From contig MQRK01222176.1 of assembly GCA_001938485.1 (NCBI GenBank), positions 5,144-59,162 on the forward strand: a stretch of 54,019 bases of DNA. The letters run 5' to 3'. The DNA is from Girardia tigrina (taxonomy: Eukaryota). The notes under the pieces were generated by a model. It was not told the origin of the DNA, did not search any database, and saw only the letters and a list, made by a program, of their open reading frames with translations. The position numbers and the translations under genes are program-made. Positions 12,066-52,063 of this stretch are shown here, piece by piece (the stretch's first letter is position 1; each line of letters opens with the position of its first letter).

Positions 12066-14424
12066 TATATATTTTTGTTAAGAAGTAAAATTAAAAAATA
12101 TAATTTTGTTTAAAAAGATGATATTATTTAGTTTTAATTCTTTTTATAAAATTAAATGCAAAAGTTCATTAATCCAAAGTTTTGGGTTTTGTGAGGAAAC
12201 AATTGGTAACGAATAAGAACATTAATCGTAGTTGATATTCTGGGATTCTCTGGGACCGCGCACATTCTTACAGATATATCGACAAATCAATCCACAATAC
12301 TCTCCGTGAGACCTCTGGTCAAAGAATCATCGATTTTGTACTCCACGACTATCTTGTTTTATTTGTTTTCGTACAAATTCAATGTCTTGGAAAAGTATCG
12401 ATTGATCCCATCATCGATCGGTTTGATGGATATGCAGACGCATTTCACTATCCCATTGTTCTAGCCGATAATCACATTGTATTATTCACTTTGAACTTCG
12501 TGAGTGCCTTATGGACCACAATGGAATTTTCTGTCCGTTTGGTGATTGGATTGCGTTAAAACTCGGTGAATTGGCTGGGTTTTTTGACTTCCACCTACAT
12601 GGGTAATTTCTGACACACGTTCAGAGAGTCTGAGTAGAGTGCTGTCGTGTCGCATCCCTGAACTCCGAAAACCTCCACCGCCACCGCCGGCGCGTTCTGT
12701 TTCAATCCGTCGAACAATACGGGTGTGTTGTTGGTCTACTGTCGACATGGTGAAGAGTTTTGAGAGAATCTCATAATGGCTGGTTGAAATTGTTGGGCGG
12801 TTAAATTGGCGACGTTTTGTAAATTCGAATGCAATGTTAGATTAGCGATATTATTTTATTGATTTTTGCTATTTGGTTAATAATAATTATAAAAAATAAT
12901 TGAAGGAGTAGTATGCGAATAAGTAATAATTGAATAAGTAATACTCGGTAATTTATTACTGTATTTCTTTGTTGTAACTACTTTGTTAATCAATTTAAAC
13001 AAACTAATTTTTTTAACCTTACAATTATAAATAACAATACAATAACAAAAATAATACATACAAGTTTTTAGATTTTTTTACATATTTTTGGATTATAAAA
13101 TACATTAATATTTATATAAAAAATAGTTTTAGTTAAAATAAACCTAATTACATTGAGCTTTCTAAAAACTTTTATTTAAAGAACACACAACATCGAATAA
13201 CCGGTTAACCGGTTTACACTACCTACAAATCGAGACTCTTTCTCTTGGTATCACCAAATATTGTTTACACTTGACTCTTTTTTTTTGTAGAAAAACAACG
13301 ATAAATAATGAATGGATAATGAATATTCCTCAAATGAAACCATAACACAAAAGAAGAGGTCAAATCGTTTTATATACACAAAATTCATTTGTTGTTAATA
13401 AACATTTTTTATTACCCAAAAAAATTTTTTAATCGAAAACAGTGGTAGAAGTAAATAATCTTATAAATCTCACATTTTCATTTTTCGAGAAAATATCGCA
13501 AGCTCGATCTTGACGGTAGAAAGTTATGAATTTAGTTTATTTTGTGAACTCTTAAAATCGTCTATTATCATCAACTGTTTTATAGAATCTTTCGAATTTT
13601 AAACTTATCATTATTAATATTAGAATAATTATTGAATTCATGTAGAATTATTTTAAATTTTTACATGATTCATGTTTGACAAGATAATTATAAAGAAAAA
13701 TAATCTGTTGAAGTATTATATTTAATATAACGTTAATTACTTTTGATAAAGAATTAATTAAAGTAATTAAATTTATTTCTATTTTTAATGATTTCCACAA
13801 ATATTTGTACGGATATGTAACAGTTTCACAAGAATAAACACTGAGAAAAACATTTTAAGATAAAATTTTTTCCATTGGCTTGATTGACTTTTCGATTGAC
13901 TTGAGTCAATATTATATTAGTCAAAACAAGTACATTTCTATGAATTAAACATTTGAAAAAAGAAAAAAAATAATCGGTATCTACGATACAAAGTACCTAA
14001 ACAATGTCAAAAGACTAAAATATAACTATTAAAGAGAATATATTATGATAAATAATGTTTATTTATATCTATGGAATAATACTAGTAAATCAAAAAAAAA
14101 CTTTATATTCATTCTTTATGGTAGCAAAACTGTACTTGTCCAAGAGAAATTATTTGTTTTTTGTAGAAGGGAACTTACTATTACATTTACTTTTTTATCT
14201 TTACTTTTTTTACATAGACTTTTTTCAAATGCTATTTTAAAAAAAAGTTTAAAAAACCTGTAAAAGTTTATAGTGTATTGAATATATAAAATCCCTATTG
14301 TTCAGAAACACAAATTAGACAAAGGAAGAGGATGACACAAATTGAAGGCACAATTTGAACATTTATTATTTACCAAACTTTAAATGTATTATGATAATCC
14401 GAAAAGAATACCAAATCGAATTAA

Positions 14425-15429: not shown

Positions 15430-15935
15430 GAGAAGAATGAAATGAATTTTCTACTTCACTTTCAGCATTATTCTATTTTGCAATAACCTTGTCAGATATT
15501 TGACGATAATCACAAGTTGTAATTCCAAGGAGAGCCTTTCCTCGATATTTGTCTCGCTGAGAATAGCACTTCGCTGTTTTACCAGCAGGCTCAAAACATG
15601 CATTGGTAATCTCTACATCACTTAGTTGTCCTCGGTAGGCCTTCTCGGCTAAAATAACCAGTGTAAATGTATTCGTCGGTAATTGAATATAAGGATATGG
15701 AACCAAATTATTTTTAGAAACAGTCGAATCGACATCGAGAGTTCCATCGAACGGTAAAGAAGTTGTGATATATATCCCAATTCGTAGTATTTTAATGTCA
15801 ACCGCAGAGGCACGAACAGAATGTTCTAATAAAGAACGGATCGAACTATTGAAATTGTAAGGCTCATCAAACTCGGTGGAGATATGAAGTGCTGAATATT
15901 CCAATTCGGATTTCTCATCGTAATTATAATTGGAA
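15430..15935 (-). pseudogene. TUBA: Degenerate alpha-tubulin fragment (middle of the protein)
   Basis: [34 protein letters not shown] and [22 protein letters not shown] match alpha-tubulin ([47 protein letters not shown]); internal deletions, no N-terminus. Confidence 0.9.
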
Positions 15936-16901
15936 ATCATATTTCGGGATAATAACAACAAACTGCAACAAATAAATGTTTTTATTTATCATTAAATCTT
16001 GCAACACTGAACTGCGTTTCCGCGCTATAATTTTACAACAATTTTATTAAAACAAAACACGCAAATTTCACAACATATATAGTTATAAATATATATTATT
16101 AATGTCATTTATTTTAAAACAAAAAGGAATATTTAAAAATAAATCGATCAAAATACTATGTTTTTTTTTATTTTACAAGGATGAAAAAATAAAACATTAA
16201 TTAAAGTGTAATGTATTCATATAATACATTTATTTATCTATTTTTGTCCATTTTTCCACAAGATAATTCTTTTATTATAGAAAATAAAATATAAAATTAG
16301 AATAAAACGGAAAATAAATAAATGTAACTTTAATTTATTGGTGATAATTGCTATATTTAAATAAAATAAAATTTTATTATTGCAATTATTCTGCTGTTAT
16401 ATTATTATTAATAAAATGTATCTTTTTTAATAAAATATCAATACTTTTCTATGAACTATTTTATTTTAATTTTTTTACAAAATGAAAATTTTATTTATTT
16501 ATAAATCAGAATAAACAATACTTTATTTTACTAAATGATGATTTATTTACAAATCATAATTTCCTTTCTATAAAAAATGTTTCTATATATTTCTTTTATA
16601 TTATTCTGGAAAAATATGCAATTTATTAAATTTTTATTATTTATCTACTTATTAAGCAAAACTGGAAGCTAATAGAAAGTATTCTTATAAATACTATTTT
16701 AACCAATAATTTTTTTGAAAGATATTTAATATTGAGGTGCTTTACTATTCCCAATATGGATGTTAATCAAAATTGTAAGGTGTCTGATCAGCAACGATTC
16801 ACCTCTCAGATTCTGAATCAAATTTTTTTGAAGAATATAAAAAGTTTCATTAGTAAAATTAAAATATTTTTGTTTTTTAATAACGTGAATAAAATTTTAT
16901 G

Positions 16902-17050: not shown

Positions 17051-17359
17051 ATTAAAAATATTAGTATTAGTTCTAGAGAATATGAATCCGTTTAAAAAAT
17101 TTTTATGATCAACATCTTCAAACAAACGTCCGTTAATTTCTCAATATTCAAACAAATACATTGTGAGTCTTTTAATCGCATTTTCTCATATAAAAAATGC
17201 GATATTGTATTCATCATGTCCGTATGTACGTGTTTATCACAGCAAATTACGGGTACTGGGTGCGTCCAAGACCCCATAAACTATATATTTTTATTAGGTC
17301 TCGTCAACATCAATCCGCACTGCTATAGTAATTCAAGGTCATTCAAGTTCAACAGTCGC

Positions 17360-17580
17360 GATCATCTTAGAAACGCTTCTCATTGGTCCATTGTATTCCT
17401 GCAACGGTCGCCATCACCTTAGCATAGGCAGAAACGCTTCTGATTGGTTCCCAGTTCCTTAGCAACGATAACCAAGAGACCGATTATCTTAGCAACGAGT
17501 ACAGTAATTCAAGGCAGTTGTAACTATAGTAATGGTAACCGTATCCATAGCAACCGTGACCCCTACCCTAGCAACCATAG
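17360..17580 (+). promoter_or_regulatory. Cluster of TAGCAAC / RFX X-box-like motifs
   Basis: ATTATCTTAGCAAC (17483-17496) and GTATCCATAGCAAC (17541-17554) fit RTHNYYWTRRNRAC; further YTAGCAAC half-sites and two ATTGG; function not shown. Confidence 0.4.
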
Positions 17581-17855
17581 AAAAAAGTGCTACTCGATCG
17601 CTGCACTATGCTCAGATATGTTAATTGATATTTTTAAAGGGCTAATTAATAGTGCACATTGTGCCGCACATTATAATGTGCTAGCACAGTGCTATTTAGG
17701 CTGCAAATGGGCAAAAAAGAAAAAATCAAAACATAAAAATTTTTAAAAGTACTAGTGTTGAAAATCGATATGATGTTTTTAATGCACATTTTGATTCTCT
17801 ATCTGAATATGCAATTAGAATTTTCATTTGTTGATTACTTTTTCCTATGTACTGC

Positions 17856-21505: not shown

Positions 21506-21842
21506 TGTGAGGGATATTGGAATGATGTTTGAATGATGTTGAGTGATTGTTGAATGAGTTTTATAGTATGTTTGAGACTGGTTGGTGTTTGAAGCATGAC
21601 ATCTTTCCCTAGACAATTGAAGTCAATTATTGTCGAATTTAAAAAATTATATTACTAATTGTATAATAAATTAATTGTTATTTAACAATTAATTAAAAAT
21701 ACAAATGTTTTAATCTTTGCAGATTTTGGCAAATTTTTGAAAAATCAATTGAAGAAACAAGTCATGCCCCAAACACTGATTACAGATCATTTTAGTCGTA
21801 ATAAATCTTGTAATACGACTTTGTCTGTTAATATCCTTAATA

Positions 21843-21853
21843 TGGCGACCACG
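21843..21853 (+). promoter_or_regulatory. Primer-binding site TGGCGACCACG (likely tRNA-Arg)
   Basis: Abuts the 5' LTR; complementary to a ...CGTGGTCGCCA tRNA 3' end as recalled for tRNA-Arg(TCG); identical at 53816. Confidence 0.75.
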
Positions 21854-22848
21854 ACTCCAATGAACCTGTCAATCAAAGGACCAGAAATCTATGATGGAAA
21901 CGACAACATGTTGGAAAATTTTATCAAAGAATTCGACAGATTTTCAAATTTGATCGAAATTCCTGAAGAAAAAAAGATGTTGCTGATAACTGTTTTTCTT
22001 TCATCAGAAGCCAGCGACAAATCCGAAATCGCAGAAGGAGAAAATTATGTTGCAAAACTGCGATCGGCTTTTTCAAAGAAGAAAAATCTGTTGGATATGA
22101 TGGGAGAACTCTATCTCTTAAAACTCAATGGAGAAAATCCGGAATAAATTTTCCAGATGGCGGACCAATTAATAGAGAAAATTACGGAGAAAAAAATTGG
22201 AAAAAAAACAATTATCAAATCAAGTTTATATGAATTTGATTGATAGTTATGAAATCAAAAAGGAAGTCGTTTTAAAGGGCATTTCTGAAGCCAAAGATAT
22301 TAAAGATGTTGTTTTGAGAATGGATAAATTAAAAAAATGGACCCAATCGATTCAATGGCAGCCTACAATTCCTCACAAAGGGATACTCAGAGACAGTTAA
22401 ATGAATGAAATACAGTGGCATATAAAAGGCGCAGTTATCCATACGACCGAAACAATTGCAAAAATGAAAAATATGACAATAACAGAATCAAAAATTCAAT
22501 GGAATATTCGAAGAAATATCAAAAGGAAAACTTTGATCAAAAGCGACATAATGTTAGATGTTGGGCATGTCATGAAGAAGGACATCTGAGAAGAGATAGT
22601 CCCAATGTGAAATGTTCTTTCTGTCAAAGAAAGGGACATTTTCGATCACAATGTCATCAGAACGAGAACAGATTCAAAGAAAGACAGGATTATTTTCGAA
22701 GAAGCCAAAGAGATTATCAGAGACAAAGATTTACAGTTGCGGAAATGAACTACGAAGACGAAAATTTCAACAGTGCCGGAAGAACAGAATACCCTGAAGA
22801 ACCGAGACAAAAATATTTCAATGGAGAAATGAATCGAGAACGCAATTC

Positions 22849-22895
22849 GGAAAACGAGGATGCACGGTCACAGGGAGAGATGATCAGTGCGCTTC
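22849..22895 (+). promoter_or_regulatory. Putative -1 ribosomal frameshift signal (gag to pol)
   Basis: G_GAA_AAC heptamer followed by a GCAC-GGTCA...TGATC-A-GTGC hairpin; the -1 frame is open into ORF 22930. Confidence 0.6.
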
Positions 22896-23749
22896 AATAG
22901 GAAAAGGAGAAGATCGGGTTTGCTGTTGTGTGTTTGATTGTATGTTTAATTGTGTGTTACGTAATAACCCTCATAAATTGTGTGTGTTGAATGATGACCC
23001 CCATGAAATGTGTATGCTGTATAAATTAGATAATTTTTTTCAAAAGAATGATGGTTTGTGTGCCGAATTAATTGATTATCATAAAAATAATAATAAAAGC
23101 AATAATAATAATGATATTATTAAAAATAATAATAAATTAAAAATAAATGAAAATATAAATGTGAAAAAGGATATAACTTTTGAAAATAAAGACTCTCGAT
23201 TACAGAAAAATAATAATACAAATGTTAATGATAACTTACATGAGACTGGAAAAATAACACTAGAACTGTCTAATAAGTCAATTTATAATTTAAATGCAAT
23301 AAATAAAATAAATTTTGGAAATCCAAAAGGGAAAATTCAGTACAATAAATTAAATGGAAGACCTAGTATAAACTTTAAAATAAATGGGAAAAATGTTCAA
23401 TGTTTATTAGACACGGGAGCGAAAGTTAATGTTATAAAAGAAAATCTAATTAATGATATTTCCGGTATAAAAATAGAAAAAACCAAAAGAAAAATAATTT
23501 GTGCAAATGATTCTGAGCTTAAAAATTATGGTTTAGTTAAGATTGAAGTTGTTATTGAGGATATGAAGAGATTAATTGAATTTTATGTTGTAAATGACGT
23601 TAACCCTGAAATGATTGTTGATATAGATTTCTTAAACGAGTTCGGGATAAGATTAGTGAAACTTGACACTATTAATATAGCTGAAGATAATAATAAAAAC
23701 CAGATTTGTTATATACGTGAAAATCTAACAGACGATAATAGATTACAGA
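22856..23749 (+). pseudogene. pol: pol 5' part: Asn-rich linker and aspartic protease
   Basis: INGKNVQCLLDTGAKVNVI..MIVDIDFL retropepsin motif. Confidence 0.88.
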
Positions 23750-24496
23750 TTACTTCCATTGGTAGACCCGCAAAAACAATTCCAACAGTTACCCTGACAA
23801 AGTCCCAAAGATTTTTACATGGTTGGGTATCGATATTTTTGGTATGGATACCCTTCAGTGTTCTGCTTAAGACTTGAATATTAGCAGGAATAAGCTATTG
23901 TCTGGTAAAAGGATTGTGAAAAGTTGTACCTAGTTCTTCTTACTCTACGGCCTGCGGCCCGCATGTCATTTTACTTCCATTGGTAGACCCGTAAAAACAA
24001 TTCCAACAGTTACCCTGACAAAGTCCCAAAGATTTTTACATGGTTGGGTATCGATATTTTTGGTATGGATACCCTTCAGTGTTCTGCTTAAGACTTGAAT
24101 ATTAGCAGGAATAAGCTATTGTCTGGTAAAAGGATTGTGAAAAGTTGTACCTATATCTTCTTACTCTACGGCCTGCGGCCCGCATGTCATTTTACTTCCA
24201 TTGGTAGACCCGCAAAAACATTCCAACAGTCACCATGACAAATTCCAGAAGACTTGTACATGGTTGGGTATTTATATTTTTGGTATGAGTACCCTTCAGT
24301 GCATAAGACTTGGAATATTTTTGTATATATTTTCAATAAATTATTTTTCTGTCTGGTCATACTGACATTTTACTTATTTACATCTGTTAGGTTGGATATC
24401 AAAATTTTAATTCATAAAACCAAAATATTATTAATGCAATAACATATTTGAAAAAATTTTCGAAGAACTGTTTTTTTTAGCACAAAAATTTAATAC
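23750..24496. repeat. Foreign insert in the gypsy element: 221-bp tandem units (23750, 23971, partial 24192) plus a unique tail
   Basis: TTACTTCCATTGGTAGACCCG recurs at a 221-bp period; occupies the place of RT/RNase H. Confidence 0.9.
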
Positions 24497-25510
24497 GGAA
24501 AAGACAGTAAAATTTGGATCCCAAAAGAAAGACGAGATGAATTTATTGCAGAGTTTCATAAACTACTTTGTCATGCTGGTTCCAAAAAAGTTTATAATTA
24601 TATAAAAAATGATTTCGATATGGAAGATATGAGGATAATAACAAAAGAGATCGTGCAAAGTTGTGTAAATTGTCAGAAAAGAAAGACACAAACTACAAAG
24701 ACAAAAGAAGAAATTATAAAACAGATATCAGAGGAACCATTTCAGAAAATATATATTGATTTTTGTGAACTTTTTAAAAAAAATATTCATGGTAAGCAAT
24801 ATATATTTGCAATTATAGATCATTTTAGCAGATATATATGTTTAACCGCTGTGGCTCATCAAGATGAACAATCAACAAAGAAGATCCTTTTGGAAAAATG
24901 GATTTGGAAGCATGGTCCTCCTAAGGAAATACACATGGATAAGGGGAAAACTTTTGATTCAAAGTTAATAAAGTCCCTAGCTAAAACTTTTAATAATGAT
25001 TTGATTTATTCAAGTCCATATCACCACAACATTAATGGAATTATAGAAAGACAATTTCGAACAATAAGGGACGCAATAAGTATACGAATGGAGGACGGAT
25101 TACATAAAGATTGGGTGGAACTACTTCCGGAAATTGAATTCATGTTGAACTNNNNNNNNNNNNNNNNNNNNNNNNNNNNNNNNNNNNNNNNNNNNNNNNN
25201 NNNNNNNNNNNNNNNNNAAAGACAGGAAGGATGAAGTAAAATCAAAACAACAAGACATAATTGGAAAAATTAAATGGAAAGAAGAGAACATGGAAAAAAA
25301 TATGACGGTCGGTACAATCAGAAATTTCGAAATAGGGAAAAAGTTTTAATAAAGAAGAACAATGCATCGAAAGATGAATTTCGTTTTATTGGTCCGGCAA
25401 TAATAATTAAGAAAGTACATGAGAGAAGTTATGAACTACAATTAGAAAACGGCAAAACAATCATTAGGAATGTAGAATGGCTAAAGCCTTTTAAAGAGAG
25501 GGGGATGTGA
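24497..25510 (+). pseudogene. pol: Integrase (H2C2 zinc finger, DDE core, C-terminus); small gap at 25152-25217
   Basis: KIWIPK..FHKLLCHAG..CVNCQKRK; IYIDF, IHMDKG, NGIIERQFRTI; RNVEWLKPF; PPT AAAGAGAGGGGGA at 25493-25505. Confidence 0.92.
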
Positions 25511-26897
25511 GGGATATTGGAATGATGTTTGAATGATGTTGAGTGATTTTTGAATGAGTCTTATAGTATGTTTGAGACTGGTTGGTGTTTGAAGCATGAC
25601 ATCTCTCCCTAGACAATTGAAGTCAATTATTGTCGAATTTAAAAAATTATATTACTAATTGTATAATAAATTAATTGTTATTTAACAATTAATTAAAAAT
25701 ACAAATGTTTTAATCTTTGCAGATTTTGGCAAATTTTTGAAAAATCAATTGAAGAAACAAGTCATGCCCCAGACGCTGATTACAGATCATTTTAGTCGTA
25801 ATAAATCTTGTAATAAGACTTCGGCTGTTAATATCCTTAATAATGGCGTTCTGGATTATAAAATTTTGCCATTATTTTTTAAATTTCATATATATATATA
25901 TATATATGCGTTATTTTATTCAGTTTATCATAAATCATATTTTGTTTTTGTTTTATTAATTTTTATAATGTTTATTAATTGAAACATAATTTTAGATCTT
26001 TAAAAATATTTTAATGGACATCTCCTGTAAAAATTCAATTCCTAGATATTTTTTCTTCAATTTTAAAAACATTCAATTATAAATTATTTTTTTATAAGAA
26101 TTTCCGTGGACAATTAACTTCAATAAAACATTATGATTTTTATTTTACAACTTGATTTTAAAACATTAATTTTTGTAAAAATATTTATTATCATTTTGAT
26201 TTGAGATTAAATTATAGACATTCATTTTAATCAGAATTTAATTTGCTTTTCTAAAGTTAGTGTAAAATTATTTTAACTTTTGTCAACTAAAAATATGATT
26301 TTTAATTTAAAAATATCAAAAATGTACAGTTCACCAAAACGAACCCCTTAGAATCCTAAATTCTTTAATTGATACAAAAAGTTCATTATTAACCAATAAT
26401 ATTTTTTTTGTTTTCCGTTTTCTTTATATTTTTCATCATGTTTCTCGTGTTTAATTCTTTCAAATTATTACATAGAAAACGTTATTGTTGTTCTTTTACC
26501 AATAATTTTATCGCCAATTCTAATGAATAATTTTTAACGCCAATGGACAAGCTCTAATAAAGTAAAGGTTAAAGTATTAAGATATAGTAATTTTAAGTAG
26601 AAAAAATAAATAATCCTCGCAACTATATAACTCAGCAACTAATACAACATAATCTAAGTACACATATAATATGGCTCGTTAATTTATTTTAAGGTGAATC
26701 GAACTTTTTCTGACTTTGCAATATGACAATCTTAATTAACAGATTTTACAGTAACTTATTTTTTCAGTACTGGGTAAATAAGTTTTCCTATCACATTGAA
26801 CAAGAAAGCCTAATTACTATTCTACATGCAAATTAATTATTAATTTGACAATATGTAGCTTACTGAGAAAAAAGTAAAAATTAATACTAAAATGAAA

Positions 26898-27292
26898 ATT
26901 AGCAGGAATAAGCTATTGTCTGGTAAAAGGATTGTGAAAAGTTGTACCTAGTTCTTCTTACTCTACGGCCTGCGGCCCGCATGTCATTTTACTTCCATTG
27001 GTAGACCCGCAAAAACATTTCAACAGTCACCATGACAAATTCCAGAAGACTTGTACATGGTTGGGTATTTATATTTTTGGTATGAGTACCCTTCAGTGCA
27101 TAAGACTTGGAATATTTTTGTATATATTTTCAATAAATTATTTTTCTGTCTGGTCATACTGACATTTTACTTATTTACATCTGTTAGGTTGGATATCAAA
27201 ATTTTAATTCATAAAACCAAAATTTTATTAATGCAATAACATATTTGAACAAATTTTCGAAGAACTGTTTTTTTAGCACAAACATTTAATAC
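26898..27292. repeat. Near-identical copy of 24101-24496, outside the element
   Basis: Direct comparison; identical 62-aa spurious ORFs at 24254 and 27051. Confidence 0.93.
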
Positions 27293-43500: not shown

Positions 43501-44086
43501 AATATGTTTTAGCTATTCTTCTATGCAGCAACGAAAATAGCTTCTACACACATACATATTGGTACATTAATTAATCGATAATATTCAATCAAAATATTTA
43601 TCAAAAAAACATGTATTAAATATTTTAAATAATTAAAATATCTAATATCCAACAATTTATAAAGTAGAACGAAATTATTTTGAAAGAAATTAAAGTTAGA
43701 GTAAGTTTAATACTTTTTTAAAGAAATTATTTTGAAAATAAGTTTATTATAAATTAAATTTAAAAAATTTAAATATTTTTTTAACAAATGCTGTAAATTT
43801 AAGAGATAATTTTTTATGGTGAAAGTTCAATAAATGTATACAAAAGGATAAATTTAATTTAAAAGAAAATTTAATAAATGAATTTTGGCAAAATAATTAA
43901 ACTGACGAGAATAAATTTAAATTTGCGTGTAATTTACAATAATAAGTTTTTGTGTAAAATATGAATTTTAATTTTGAATTTCTAATCTAATGTATTATCT
44001 TCTTCTCTTCCAGATACAAATTAAAAAGATTTTTTTTTATTTTCAAAAGTTTTTTTTAATTTAAAATTAAAATATATTTTTATATA

Positions 44087-45322
44087 TTAGGGTGAACCAA
44101 ATGTCTTTTCGTATTTTTATTAAAAATTTAAACATAATTTCACAACAAATAAAAAAACATTTAAGTTTCAAAGTAAAGGCCATTTGAATCTATAGCTTGA
44201 ACCCATCTATGGGCAAGTTGTGCGGTACCAATCCTTGTTCTTAGAAGCGGAGAACTGGTGACACCCGTTTTCGACCTCGGCCAGATTATTGAAGCTGCGA
44301 CCACGAAGAAAGTGTACCACAGGGCGGAAAAGGTGAAATTCGGGTGGCACAAGATCCGGACTATATACTGGGTGTGATAGAAGTTCAAAGGTGTCGAGAT
44401 TTTTGATTTTTTCCTTTGTTTGTTTTGCGGTGTGCGGTTTTGCATTGTCCTGTTGTAGAAGAACTCGCTTTCGATTGATCAAAGCGGGGTATTTCTCGCC
44501 AAGTGCCGCATACATTTGATCAAGTTGGGCGCAGTAAAGGTCAGTGTCGATGGTACGACCATTTGGAACCAGCTCGAAGGGAATCACGCTTTCGAAATTC
44601 CACCAAACACACAAAAGTGCTTTCCTTGAGAAACGATCTCGTTTTGCTACCGGTTTCGCCATTTGTCCGGGGTCCAACCATTGATTTTGTTGGTCTCGAT
44701 TACTGAAGTAAACCCACTTTTCATCGCAAGTTACAATTCCACTGATGAAACGGTCATCGCGCGGATTTTCAAGCAATTTTTGACAAGTTTTGAAACGCTT
44801 TTCGGCTTGAATTTGTATCAATTCATGATGCACTTCTCGACATCGTCTATTGACCTTGCCAAGAGCGGGAATGTGACGTACAATGGATGTACGTGTACTT
44901 GTCTCCACGATTTCACGAATTGCTCCGGAATCTACGGTGATAGGTCGGCCTGAACGTGTATTGTCTCCGAGGTCAATGTCGCCTTCGTTGAACCTTTTAA
45001 ACCAATTTTATGCATTACGATTTGAGACCATATTATTGCCTTCAACTTCGCATATCTTCTTTGTTGCTACAGTTGCGTTTAAGCCATGTTTCCAGTAATG
45101 GCGTAAAAGAAAACGAATTTCAAAATTTTCCATGATTTTTCTTCAAGACCATAAAAATTATATTAACGACTAATTAGAAGTTTTAATATATATATTGCAA
45201 TAGAGCAGTTCAAGAGCTTTAAAAACATATAACATATGTATATAAAATATCTTTATTTGGTAATAAGAAACAATTGAACAAAAAGACGTAGAAAATACGA
45301 AAAGACTTTTGGTTCACCCTAA
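44087..45322 (-). mobile_element. mariner (DD34D) transposon, near full length, inactivated
   Basis: ~30-bp TIRs TTAGGGTGAACCAAA.GTCTTTTCGTATTTT and TA TSD; transposase 45133-44161 with RSGRP, IVTCDEKWV, LQQDNAKPH and YSPDLVPPEFHLF; stop, deletion and frameshift. Confidence 0.95.
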
Positions 45323-45599
45323 TACAAAAATTAATTATTATACCTATAAGAATTTTCCATATTAAAAATCCAAAAAAAATGATAACGTTTATTTTTAATA
45401 CACAATCAAATAATGCGCGTCTAAAATTAATTACACTGATTGATTCAAACAATCTCAGGAGTTTTTTATGTATTCAGGATCCTTTGATATAATATGATAA
45501 TGATATAAATAAATATATGTATTTTAATTTATAAATATATAGTTTTTAATTATTCTCACACCCCCTGCTTTAAAAGGCTTTAGCCATTCTATATAATTC

Positions 45600-46550
45600 T
45601 ATAAGCATTCAAGAAACCCCAGATGATGCGGAATTAGCGCTCTATTATCCCATTTGCATTTTGATGGTAAGGACTTGAATATTGTACATCAATTAACATG
45701 AATTTTCTTCATAAAAGGCTTTAACAAGTGAATTAAATGTGTCAGATACAGATCGTTGAACATTGGCTGATGGGGAATTGAGTGCGGCAATTAATTTTCC
45801 AAAAATATTGATGAATCTTTCATCAGATGCGTCAAGATGTTTCACGAGTGAATCCATCAAAGTAACAATTTACTATCGAAGGATATCGTTCTCGGCCACA
45901 TTCTCGGCACTCGATAAATAATTTTCCATATTCGGCAGAAACATATTTATATGCAGTTTCCCCGAATATTCGATCACTTTTTGACGTGTTTCTAGCATAC
46001 CATAACAAATTTGTGGATTACGATCGCTTAATGCTTGTGGTATTAGGAAATTGAATAGGCTTTCAACCAGAGAGCTTTCAGATATAAATTTAGATGTCTG
46101 GCTTGCCATTGATCAGGCGGAGATGCAATGAGTACCCTTCTAAAAGCATCCAAAACCGGTGGTTTTAAAAATGCTAAGGCTTCAAAAGGCTCTAAAATAT
46201 TCCTTACTAATAGATTTAATTGATATTCTTACATTTCAATTAACGCTGTGACTGTACTAATTGATCCAGTCATAATATCATCATGACAAAATATTACAAA
46301 ATCTTGCAGCTTAAATGCCAATTGATCGTCGACGCAAAGAGATAAAGTTTTCCATAAATGGTCGGTTTTTTCTACAGCAGTTTTATCAAAATCGTGTTTT
46401 GCTGTCCAAATGTAAAGCGACAACTGATCAAAGAATTCATTTAAAACATTCTTATCAATCGTGTTTAAACTATCAAGTGTCAGAATTCTGGCCTGAATTG
46501 TATTACAAATGAAGCAATCCATAAGATTTTTGAAAACATTTCTTTTGAAG
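45600..46550 (-). pseudogene. GCN1: GCN1 (eIF2-alpha kinase activator) HEAT-repeat fragment inside the gypsy element
   Basis: KPPVLDAFRRVLIASPPDQWQAR, LFNFLIPQALSDRNPQI and LMDSLVKHLDASD..GKLIAALNSPSANVQRSVS match recalled animal GCN1 (RPPPVLDALGRVISESPPDQWEAR; LFQFFVPDALNDR; LMGSLAKHLDKSD..AKLIAALSTPSQQVQESVA); stops and frameshifts. Confidence 0.88.
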
Positions 46551-46554
46551 AAAT

Positions 46555-47742
46555 GTACCATCAAGTAGCATTGGATGAAAGTTCTCAAGAAAAAACTGCG
46601 TTTTGCAAGAGAATACATCAGTTATGTTTTAACCGTGTACCGTTTGGACTTTCAACAGCACTCGGAACGTTTCAGAGTATAATTCAGAATTCATTATTCG
46701 AAGATTTTCTATTCTCTGGAGTAGTATTATACCTAGATGATGTCTTAATTTACTCAAAATCAATGAAGGATCATTTGAGACTATTAGAAGAAGTACTGAA
46801 TAGACTGAAGAAAGTAGGTTTAAAAGTCAATCCAGGGAAATGCAAATTCGGAGTGCGGGAACTGGTATTTTTGGGACATACAATTAACAAAGAAGGTAAC
46901 TCAACAAATAAATTGAAAGTGGCAGAAATTCAAAATTTTCCGATTCCAAAGTGTACTCGAAATTTATGAGCATTTTTAGGTCTGTGTAACTACTATCGAC
47001 GATTTATCAAGAATTACGCAGAATTAGCAGCACCTTTGCACAGTGCATGTAGCGGAAAATGTAAAGAAAAATTTAAGCAGACGAGTGCGACAGAAGTTTT
47101 CACGAATTGAAGCAAAAGTTATGAAGTGCACCTATATTAGCATTTGTGAACCCGAATAATAATTTTATCTTAGATACAGATGCATCATTCGGATCGATAT
47201 GAGCAGTTTTAAGTCAGATATCAGAAGAGAAAGAAGTAGTAATCGCGTATGCATCGAGGATTTTAACCACACATGAAAAAAGGTTCTGTGTGACAAGAAA
47301 GGAACTTTTAACTTTACAAGAGTTCATGTTACATTTCAAGCAATATTTATATGGCAAGAGATTTACAGCAAGAACTAAAGCACTAGTGTATATGAAGAGT
47401 ACATCCAAACCAATAACTCCTCAATTCCAAACATGGTTAATAAACATGCGGATTTTGACTTTGATTTGAAGTATAGAAAAGGTGACGAACATGGAAATGC
47501 AGATGGATTATCACGGCTATATGACGACGTCTGTGCAAAATGTGAAACAAAACACGAAGAACCAAAATTAACAAAAGCAAGGGTGAAACACATCAAAACA
47601 GTGGTGATTCAGTCTACAATTCAATGGATAAAAGACTAACAAGAAAAGTGTTCAGAGTTGAACCAGTTGAAACAAATACAGGAGATGACAGAGGGAGAAA
47701 AGAATGAAATCAACAAGGAGTTATTACAACTAAAGGACCAAT
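46555..47742 (+). mobile_element. pol: RT/RNase H fragment of a different gypsy family, antisense to the host element
   Basis: YHQVAL..KTAF..FNRVPFGL..VLYLDDVLIYS..FLGH..FLGLCNYYRRFI..ILDTDAS..HGNADGLSR. Confidence 0.92.
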
Positions 47743-48186
47743 TAGTTTCATTTCGCATAAATGAATACGTTTTCATAAATCCCACTTGACATAATTATTT
47801 ATGGAAAAAGATTATACAAGCATTTCCTTCACTTTTTGGAATCCAAATCTTGTCATTTAGGGTTCTGACACATCCTTTGGATAATTTGAATGTTTCACAA
47901 GTATTGTTCTTTATTTGTTCAATGATTTACGTAATTTCCGTGCTCTTCTGTTTTCATGGTATGGGAGATCTCTCTTCATCTATTGCCAACATTCTCACTT
48001 TTTGGTTTGATAATTTTGGCTGCTCATGTTGAATCATACACTGTGAACATACTGTACATTCATTCCGAGACAACGCATCTTCATTTTGATGTATTTCTCA
48101 TTTTCTATATTCTAATTTCATATCTAAACTGCCTAAGTTCATCTAGTTTTGAAATTGCGGAGTAATTGGTTTTTTCTTGTCATTAT

Positions 48187-48464
48187 TGTGAGGGGTTTGT
48201 TTGATAATTAATGTGTGTTGATTGAAATTTGTTGAGTATGTTGTTCTCTCCCGTTCAATGTAATTATTAACACGATGATCTTAATTTGAATTATTAAATG
48301 ATAAAATGAATATATGACAAATAAATATATTTGTTTTAATATTCAGATTTTTGACGAATATTTAAATTAAGCGTGATTGTATATTCTTGTTCTTGAATAA
48401 ATGTTTTCAAAAAAAGAGTCTTGTTTTCTTGATAAACAGACCAAAACGTGTGGAGTAATTAACA
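48187..48464 (+). mobile_element. Solo LTR (TG...CA) inserted in the RNase H region
   Basis: TGTGAGGGG...ATTAACA with ATTAT TSD; RNase H homology resumes on the other side. Confidence 0.85.
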
Positions 48465-50174
48465 ATTATAAAAACAATTGCATTGTGATCTGTTCTCAGT
48501 TTAAAATGTGCACCGTAAAGGTAATGTTTAAAATGTTGAGTAAAATAAAATATTGTTAATAATTCTTTCCTTGTTATACAATAACCTATTTCATGTTTCG
48601 ACATCGACCTTGATACATACACGATGACTCGCTCTTCACCTTCGTCATCTAACTGAGAAAGAACCACGCCAATTGTATCGAAAGATGCATCTGTATCTAA
48701 AATGAACTGCTTTTTAAAATTTGGATAACATAATATATGGGCACTTGTCATGACTGTTTTTAGCTTTTAAAAAGCCTCTGTTTGTAATACGTTCCAATAA
48801 AGTTTATTTTTAGAACTTCCACGCATTGCTTACTACGGTTTTGCTAGTTTTTGATTATTCTACAATGAACTTCCTTTAATAATTACACAGTCCTAAAAAA
48901 CTGCGCAATTTTTTTTACACATTTTGGTTGTTCAACATCTACTAATGTCTGGATTTTCTCGGATCCGTTTTTTATTCCTTCACTATTCACAATATATCCA
49001 AGAAAATGCATCTCCTTCTGGAAAAATTTACATTTTCTGAGTTAATTCTTAAGCCTGCTTATTGAATTTTTCGAAAATAAGCGGTTTAATCTTTTCAAAT
49101 GCTCGTCTTTTGTTTCTGAAAAAATCAACACGTCATCCAGATATACCACTGCCTCTTTCCATAGCTTATCCTTCAATATTTCATTCATTAATTTTTGGAA
49201 AGTAGCCAGTGCTGCTCTATGCCGAATGGCATTCTAGTAAAGCAAAATTTTCCGGTCCTTGTAGAAAAAGCCGTTTTCAACTTTGAAGATTTTTCAAACT
49301 CCACTTGGTAATAAGCATTACCCAGATCTATGGAACTAAACCACTTCATTCTAATTAAAGAATCCATCATCTCATCAACATTTGGAAAAGGAATGGATGG
49401 TCTCTCAGTTACTTGATTTAGGAGCCGTAAATCTAAACACAGACAGATTTGCTTTTTCTCCTTTTTCCACACACAAACCAATGGTGTGTTTTAAGGGCAA
49501 GAATATTTTTCTATTTTTCCATGTCTTTCTAAATTCAATATTGCTTTTTTGATGTGATGTTCCAAATGTGCCGGCTATCTACGGGGCTTCTGTAAAATTG
49601 GCTCACTAGGTATTTTTATTTCATGTCTGGTTAACGTAGTTTTCCTAATATCCCATTTTCCAGTCATAAAAATGTTCTTGTACTTATTTATACATCTGTA
49701 TAAATTTGCACCATCACGTAGATTTAATGTTTTTAGATTTTCAAAAATCTGTCTTTGTCTGTATAAATAAGTTTATCCATCCATGGATATAAAGCACATA
49801 TTTCCGCACATACTCTATCAGATGTAAATAGTTCTTGTATTATATTTTTGGCATCAAATCTCCACCTTAAATCGAGACCTAAAGATCAAATTTATTACAT
49901 AATCAAATTATGCGAGTCTAAAATTAATTACACTGATTGATTCAAACAATCTCAGAAGTTTTTTATATATTCAGGATCCTTTGATATAATATGATAATGA
50001 TATAAATAAATATATGTATTTTAATTTATAAATATTAATTATTCTCACAATATCATAGAAAAAAAGCAGAATTGTTGAAAGGTATTGATTTTTTTCGTTG
50101 TTTTGCTTTCGTGTTATTTAAATGGACTTTTTGTAAATAAAAACAGAGAAATTTTGCTAAATAAAAATGTTATT

Positions 50175-50565: not shown

Positions 50566-52063
50566 TAATTAAAAATAAATTCGTTATTTTTTGTGTTTAA
50601 AAAGGAAAAATTCAAATAAAATGATCGAAAACAAGGTCGTTTTCGATATGGTATTTATTGAGAATCAAATTTTTCGAGTTTCGCTCAGAAATTAATTATC
50701 GATTATTGTAAACAACACCGAGAACTGAGTTCCGAGGATTTTGAAACTATTTTCAAACCGATATTTTCGAAAATCTCATTAAATATAATCGATTTCTTTA
50801 GTTACATTGAGATTTCTTTGGAGATTTGATCGAATCTTGTGATAGACAGTTGTTTGAGGAGATACTAGGTAGAGATTCAACCGAGAAATTGACAAGTATA
50901 ATCATTGGTTACAATCTATTTGCGCATGCAAATGTACTTTAGACGATTGTAAGACTTGTCCAACAATAGCTCTAGTACGAGTTCATTACAGAGAGCGTTA
51001 TTCTCTCCAAATTGAACTCTGAACTCCTCATTGTTTTTCAACAACTACTTTACGTTGATAAAGTCCTATCTGGATATTTGACGGTGTTTGCTCATCCTTG
51101 TAAAAATCACTGTCTAGAGTCGTTAAAATGCTATTCATCCTTTGTTAAAGCGTTAAGCGACAATATATCCTGTTCTCACTGGCTCTTACAAATTAAAATA
51201 TTAGAATCAATAAATGAATTCATTGAATTATCATGATCTTAGCATTTATATGTTCCGCTAATCTTTATCGAGAAAATCTTCTAACTGAATGTTTTATTCA
51301 AATTATCTTGTGTACAAAATGTCACATTTGATATTGTTTTTTCAAGTTGTATCAATGTCATACCTTTTAGAATAAAAATAATGCTTTGAGTTTAGCCTAA
51401 TAAATAAAACAGAAAACTTGCTGTTATCAAATATTTTGTAAAAAAACAAATTCATAAATATATGGAGAAAGGTTTAGGAGACTCTGCTCCATCATCTATG
51501 ACTGTGTATAATTGAGAAGTTGGTTATGAGAGTCAATACCATTCAGGTTCACGTTGGGCTTAATCAGGGTCAACTCGTAAATTCTCAGAATCTTTGGAAA
51601 CAATCCGAATCATGTTGACAAATTCACGTTTATTTTGGAAATATTCGGTTTAGAGCGAGTCGTCAGTCATTTCATCTTTTTATAAATAATTGATTTTGTT
51701 AAAATCAGTCCCAAACAAATAGGTTTTTAATAAATAAATCTTTATGGTTAGGTCTGGTATCACACCCTCAAATATAAATGAACTGTATTTTTTGAAACGG
51801 GGGATTCTTATTTAAAAAGATGAATAATTATATTGTGCAATTATTGTTTGCATCTAGTGATATATGACTATGGTGGGTTAACACGATAGATGTCCACCCC
51901 ATTACACTTGTGCACTTAGTGTAAGACTTCATTTTGTGTTTCCTGTTTAGGTAGTTGTTAGTCACAAAATTTGCCTCAACAAAGACTGAATTTCAATTAA
52001 AAATTTTCAATTTGATTTCAGTTCGAAATAATTTTTTAAACCATTTAAATTTTGATCAGCGAA

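Follow-up and report, generated by a model that had tools for sequence, protein, structure and literature searches.

At positions 45345-50049 of the stretch of DNA analysed here (the window, 54,019 nucleotides), a fragment of the gene GCN1 lies within the integrase region of a retrotransposon. The host element is a real, decayed Ty3/gypsy copy on the minus strand, with the order reverse transcriptase (RT), ribonuclease H (RNase H) and integrase present as in that group, and it survives only as a remnant that no longer forms a transposable unit. The window as a whole is AT-rich, its GC content being mostly 20–35%, and carries many broken transposons, 890 N and near-identical duplications; the element itself is free of N. 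For comparison we used contigs from 4 of 24 listed sequencing runs, namely X1 and X2 (DNA runs), X3 (guessed to be RNA) and X6 (of a kind not on record). Small shares of the sampled words in freshwater, biofilm and leaf-litter runs were left out of the comparison. The search for pieces across the junctions covers the 32 listed, a small part of the whole; the contigs come from relatives and not from the true donors, and they drop rare variants. The element comprises the following features, in which LTR stands for long terminal repeat, TSD for target-site duplication, PPT for polypurine tract and PBS for primer-binding site:

45340..45344, no strand: left copy of the TSD, matching 50050-50054 at 4 of 5 positions (comparison of candidate ends)
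45345..45560, minus strand: 3' LTR, 216 bp, complete, with TG...TA ends (LTR alignment, terminal inverted repeat, ends of contig alignments)
45561..45600, minus strand: PPT and last integrase codons (45555-45594 is 90% identical to 25470-25511 of a second gypsy element)
45605..45703, minus strand: piece of the integrase catalytic core, left limit approximate, with some 400 bp of integrase deleted after it (integrase comparison)
45704..46551, minus strand: coding sequence of GCN1 over 848 bp, corresponding to about marmot residues 1090-1373, with 3 stops, one frameshifting deletion near 46095 and no intron at 45762/45761 (alignment to homologues and contigs)
46552..46555, no strand: 4 bases assigned to neither neighbour (the GCN1 contig match ends at 46551 and the second-gypsy contigs begin at 46556)
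46556..47748, plus strand: C-terminal half of RT, RNase H and linker of another gypsy family, antisense to the main element, with 4 stops in 393 codons (Pfam, contigs)
47747..48181, minus strand: main element, with a linker and the first part of the integrase zinc-binding domain, overlapping the antisense piece by 2 bp (contigs, integrase comparison)
48187..48464, plus strand: 278-bp solo LTR from a different family, nested in the element, with TG...CA ends and flanked by a perfect 5-bp TSD (contigs of X1 and X2 pass over it)
48465..49897, minus strand: main element, the last part of its protease region and then RT and RNase H, broken by stops and by several frameshifts (Pfam, reading frames, contigs)
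49897..50049, minus strand: 5' LTR, about 50 bp missing; the deletion behind it took the PBS, gag and most of the protease (LTR alignment; protease-side contigs align to 49896-49897)
50050..50054, no strand: right copy of the TSD (comparison of candidate ends)

The LTR pair aligns between 45394-45560 and 49891-50049 with a 91.6% match (E 7e-65), the divergence amounting to 5 mismatches in 153 aligned sites (3.3%, 95% range 1.1–7.5%) and one 8-bp indel, and the TG...TA termini recur in the second gypsy element of the window. The 4/5 TSD is weak alone, since 4 of 94 candidate ends reach it; among those four, 45345 has the best terminal inverted repeat, and family contigs stop aligning at 45344-45345, in agreement with the end of the 3' LTR (this is our reading of the alignment ends, calibrated on the boundary at 45704). 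At the other side, the 5' LTR is short of its last ~50 bp and is joined directly to the end of the protease region, the PBS and gag being deleted; the PBS motif of a neighbouring element occurs at three places in the window, none of them inside 45345-50049. Both RT (Pfam RVT_1) and RNase H (Pfam RT_RNaseH_2) of the main element lie on the minus strand, and the RT found no relative among the viral contigs scanned. The start of the integrase shows a 43% match to the zinc-binding region in the integrase that another gypsy element of the window carries. The solo LTR lies behind the RNase H domain, and its first 27 bases are found at no second place in the window. An initial annotation of this DNA had described a minus-strand element with an LTR pair, RT and RNase H, the start and the end of an integrase, a PPT and a 3' LTR, and these results bear it out on each of those points. 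The 5' LTR and the 4/5 TSD that it named are there too, the TSD match being weak by itself; it overlooked the truncation of the 5' LTR, the loss of PBS, gag and most of the protease behind it, the nested solo LTR and a piece of the integrase core.

The integrase stops at 47747, at residue 40 in the numbering of the neighbouring element, and is taken up again at 45703, near residue 165; in between, 2043 bp stand collinearly in place of about 124 codons. The resumed piece, from 45703 to about 45605, has 17 of 23 residues identical to the integrase of the other element (pairwise E 9e-11); it holds about 33 codons and is followed by a deletion of about 400 bp before the last codons and the PPT. 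We assume that this piece and the upstream integrase come from one family. GCN1 therefore does not stand in place of the integrase as a whole, as had been proposed, because only these inner codons are replaced before the core resumes, and the junction earlier put near 45595 is to be moved: GCN1 ends at 45704, and 45605-45703 is integrase core. The other part of the insert was correctly recognised as an antisense RT/RNase H piece from another gypsy, since it carries Pfam RVT_1 and RT_RNaseH_2 and shares only 35–50% amino acid identity with the main element. At the junctions that could be measured, the overlap is 2 bp at 47747-47748, and at 46552-46555 the four unassigned bases stand as filler, both measured on contigs of relatives, not donors. 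Among the 32 listed pieces from the four runs, from which rare variants have been dropped, none bridges a junction, which is not evidence that such sequences are absent.

The best named matches of the remaining insert are GCN1 proteins. Marmot GCN1 residues 1111-1373 lie collinearly on 46483-45705 (combined E 1e-34) with no gap of intron size, and the fragment is internal and in the sense orientation of the element; identity, orientation and the lack of an apparent intron thus stand as first annotated, with the length corrected from ~950 to 848 bp. Four GCN1 contigs from X3 and X6 align to it with 0 gaps and 89–93% identity, and three of them continue unlike the window at 45704 or at 46551. 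Because the contigs of these other runs diverge from the window exactly there, we take the two positions as the limits of the fragment; the loose contig letters at 45704 keep the GCN1 frame (by eye). A tree built on 136 columns from 29 sequences, one of them the window piece and the other 28 chosen from 150 homologues, groups the piece with P0003 (support 100/96), a protein from a 2246-bp contig that is its nearest GCN1 relative at 68% identity, and the two together are sister to named parasitic flatworms (support 99/96). By these 136 columns, the host is probably a free-living flatworm. The fragment has decayed: its 282 codons include 3 stops, and near 46095 a deletion of about 25-30 nucleotides shifts the frame; it is non-coding and cannot make a protein. 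We considered whether that deletion is a product of alternative splicing and rejected this, as the skipped letters do not end in AG (by eye). Read by eye, the junctions show neither a poly(A) at the GCN1 end nor a TSD around the insert, the hallmarks of L1 being absent. Searched alone, the GCN1 pieces of the window matched no Pfam family, and the upstream piece had no PDB match either. The best PDB match, 8i9x_LR, is a chain of 2898 residues labelled ribosomal protein L19 that matches GCN1, and is probably a fused gene model.

Does the fragment come from spliced RNA? Among the homologues of at most 500 amino acids (74 of 166, several of them near-duplicates), the match of 23 of 74 breaks off at marmot residue 1355 and that of 4 of 74 at residue 1356. 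These break-offs include P0003, where the protein ends, and a gene model of the trematode Dicrocoelium, and they show the apparent pattern of gene calls that run into a phase-0 GT intron. Because P0003 and the trematode model both break there, flatworms probably had this intron ancestrally, and the nearest relative found probably still has it. The window passes the corresponding site, 45762/45761, and continues for 19 more codons, and two of the four gapless GCN1 contigs from X3 and X6 span it as well. Since the fragment reads through a conserved intron site, we consider it likely, judging by sequence comparison, that it derives from spliced RNA. Searches for the parent GCN1 gave little: none of 719 and none of 168 candidates among longer proteins (lengths up to 2000 amino acids) qualified, and in a search of proteins of near length 8 of 379 candidates passed, P0003 being the only close relative. 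Scans of metagenomes by protein and by motif, and of prokaryote genomes, were without match.

The decay of the pieces bears on their relative ages. Stops were counted in frames that we picked, short out-of-frame stretches being excluded, and expectations come from a rough mutation model whose bias was taken from unpolarised counts in X3. The main pol region has 12 stops in 589 codons, where the LTR divergence predicts 1.7–2.2 and its upper bound 3.9–5.1, so that the excess persists even at that bound (P 0.0007–0.006). For the antisense piece, with its 4 stops, the corresponding expectations are 1.2–1.6 and 2.9–3.7, and for GCN1 0.6–0.9 and 1.5–2.0; the excess in the inserts is marginal, with P 0.03–0.06 for GCN1 at the point estimate. 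The decay of pol exceeds the age of the LTRs, which means that the element had died before the last event that made its LTRs identical, be it trans copying or gene conversion. This fits a capture that was followed by trans copying. The GCN1 piece also looks older than the LTR pair, which argues against the capture of a fresh mRNA after this insertion. Copying needs a PBS, so the deletion of PBS and gag must postdate the last integration; without a PBS, the present structure is not a direct product of reverse transcription, and at least one later DNA-level deletion, and probably the solo-LTR event too, has been added to it.

From the anatomy and decay described above we infer, at a probability of roughly one in two, an LTR-borne GCN1 retrocopy, formed by template switching in a gypsy particle, copied in trans and then decayed at the DNA level. 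During minus-strand synthesis in the particle, RT would have left the element RNA within the integrase core, gone on to copy some 850 nucleotides of spliced GCN1 mRNA and next about 1190 nucleotides of RNA transcribed antisense from another gypsy (a single chimeric transcript may have supplied both), and returned to the element RNA about 124 codons further upstream. The resulting chimera would have kept both LTRs, the PPT and the PBS, and would have been copied in trans at least once after decay began, resetting the LTRs. After the last integration, and in an order that is our reconstruction, the end of the 5' LTR, the PBS, gag and most of the protease would have been deleted, and another element would have inserted and collapsed to the solo LTR. 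The initial annotation had likewise proposed a retrocopy made by several switches; the probable RNA origin and the replacement of part of an open reading frame (ORF) fit it, whereas the loss of the PBS and the overlaps of 0-2 bp do not favour it.

Several points weigh against this reconstruction: (i) The evidence on the intron may have other explanations. P0003 might end at the edge of its contig, the organism's own GCN1 may have no intron here, and X3 and X6 may not be RNA. P0003 also passes a second site, residue 1289, where vertebrate homologues (12 of the 74) begin; because it reads through there, this lineage is without at least one vertebrate intron. (ii) The locus has demonstrably been rearranged at the DNA level, as seen in the loss of the PBS, the solo LTR and the 400-bp deletion, and no second copy with the same junctions turned up among the 32 listed contig pieces. 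(iii) The overlaps are short, 2 bp and 4 filler bases, compared with a median of 6 bp in the part of Tan et al. 2016 (PMC5131818) drawn on here. (iv) The antisense orientation of the second-gypsy piece means that an antisense transcript must have been co-packaged. (v) The timing is soft. The GCN1 stop excess is gone at the upper bound of LTR age (P 0.18–0.32), the inserts have 7 stops in 675 codons against 12 in 589 for the main pol (p 0.17, not significant), a direction that would suit later patching, and gene conversion between the LTRs would mimic trans copying.

The foremost alternative is a patch made after insertion: a double-strand break in the integrase of the resident element, the loss of about 370 bp and the capture of two pieces, one from a GCN1 cDNA or an older processed GCN1 copy and one from another gypsy, possibly the nested element later reduced to the solo LTR, which is 440 bp distant and has the same orientation. 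No allele or ortholog of this insertion site appeared among the contig joints listed. Overlaps that are short or lacking, together with the filler of 4 bases, fit the microhomologies of 1-5 nucleotides and the multi-piece inserts reported, in the sections of that work consulted, by Ono et al. 2015 (PMC4516963). A patch has no constraint of orientation, and thus no special transcript is required for the antisense piece; further DNA-level events have occurred at the locus, decay in the inserts is somewhat weaker than in the main pol, and the window holds another decayed piece of a host gene, of alpha-tubulin at 15476-15985. Against a patch, the decay of GCN1 is above what the LTR pair allows for an mRNA captured after insertion (P 0.03–0.06), although an older pseudogene as donor avoids this. 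With overlaps of 0-2 bp and 0 of 32 listed pieces across the junctions, patching stays a strong rival, to which we give a smaller but substantial share of belief. An unlikely course is the capture of an exon at the DNA level, from a host GCN1 with one long exon here and no RNA step; it would suit a lineage that has lost some introns (P0003 passes residue 1289) and a parent locus that the protein, metagenome and prokaryote scans did not find, but the common break of P0003 and the trematode model at 1355/1356 suggests an intron that is probably ancestral in flatworms. A chimeric assembly is very improbable: the window does have 890 N and near-identical duplications, and no listed piece bridges a junction, the best run having only 0.28 of the sampled words, but the 0-2 shared bases, where measured, are too few for a word-graph misjoin, the element is free of N with private changes in each piece, the integrase is collinear across the patch, and LTRs and TSD enclose the whole.

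In yeast, template switching generates Ty1-mRNA chimeric cDNAs in which pieces of mRNA stand between pieces of the retrotransposon, and such cDNAs can recombine into resident elements, a route that lies between the template-switched retrocopy and the patch. Tan et al. 2016 (PMC5131818), in a passage that cites Derr 1991 and Schacherer 2004 on Ty1-mRNA chimeric cDNAs, and in the other sections used here, describe LTR-mediated retrocopies of animals: part of an internal ORF is replaced in 15 of 15 Drosophila cases, one case has two genes and three switch points, three junctions carry 2-26 new bases, and chimeras with multiple switches and further copying are reported. Judged by its sequence against those sections, our element appears to have the structural features of this class, namely an internal, partial gene piece in sense, the replacement of part of an ORF, both LTRs, more than two switch points and signs of further copying as a non-autonomous element. 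It differs in being older and dead, in having overlaps of 0-2 bp where measurable, in that its second captured piece is an antisense gypsy stretch and not a second mRNA, and in being a probable flatworm case, a group whose name is absent from the main text of that paper. The inserts of Ono et al. 2015 (PMC4516963), which arise in mouse zygotes by break repair mediated by RT products, resemble ours, in the part consulted, in joining several pieces of retrotransposon and spliced-mRNA sequence; there the breaks are induced in any sequence, whereas here the target itself is an LTR element, so the template-switch and break-repair routes are inseparable from one copy. A third comparison is with the Burro elements (PMC6431247), flatworm gypsy elements that, like ours, hold host-like protein domains; in the sections seen, the domains of Burro are in frame within an ORF of several thousand residues, in a high-copy family of planarians, whereas our GCN1 piece, part of a dead 4.7-kb copy, is interrupted by stops and by a frameshift and is not a functional domain capture.

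If the retrocopy interpretation is true, a probable flatworm case is added to LTR-mediated retroposition, and with it raw material from which in-frame captures like those of Burro could arise. In the open-access literature (subscription papers lay outside its scope) we found no report of an LTR-borne GCN1 retrocopy or of planarian retrocopies, and, by titles and the beginnings of abstracts, none on flatworm LTR retrogenes or planarian processed pseudogenes. A preprint on the Dugesia genome (10.64898/2025.12.11.693146) states, in the part available, that more than 90% of the LTR elements of Dugesia and Schmidtea are gypsy, and does not contain the word pseudogene. The mechanism of capture is itself already established and the copy is non-coding, so its value is modest unless an amplified, expressed family bearing GCN1 is confirmed. 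It is a long shot that non-autonomous elements with GCN1 have multiplied and are transcribed in flatworms, where by feeding a piece of GCN1, the sensor of ribosome collisions, into the small-RNA pathway against transposons they could dampen the host gene. The sole hint of such a family is in steps of contig depth, which is no copy number: the bin 45811-46000 exceeds 46191-46380 by 9x in X1 and 5x in X2, and two GCN1 contigs differ 4.6-fold in depth in X3 and are level in X6. Summed contig depth over the downstream part of the piece, 45704-46110, is 5-9 times that of the upstream part in X1, X2 and X3. An amplified GCN1 segment in relatives is a possible reading of these steps; past 45704 the deep X3 contig departs from the window, which means that an amplified form, if there is one, would differ from the chimera described here.

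Other elements and gene fragments surround the chimera. The alpha-tubulin fragment at 15476-15985 (minus strand) is decayed and internally deleted, with a best PDB match at E 7e-25 and no Pfam match, and its presence in the same window suggests that scraps of host genes are not rare here. The second gypsy, at 21506-25842 on the plus strand, has 337-bp LTRs with 9 differences, a perfect 5-bp TSD, a PBS, gag-like and protease-like frames and an integrase (Pfam rve and H2C2); where its RT would be there stands, by eye, a duplicated sequence that is not pol, another internal replacement. The duplications include a tandem one at 23750-24191 and a copy of 24096-24395 at 26893-27192. A mariner copy (Pfam Transposase_1) with terminal inverted repeats occupies 44085-45325 and ends about 20 bp from the 3' LTR. 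Short gene-like frames appear in the list of ORFs at 17100-17777 (minus strand), which has no Pfam match, and at 12236-12841. Beyond the 5' LTR by 600 bp, broken frames that look gene-like by eye lie at 50600-51330 on the plus strand, with X3 and X6 contigs on their start; the reading frame at 50814-51323 has no Pfam or PDB match. From 53816 onward on the plus strand, a PBS-like motif followed by a gag-like frame is probably a third gypsy that runs off the end of the window.

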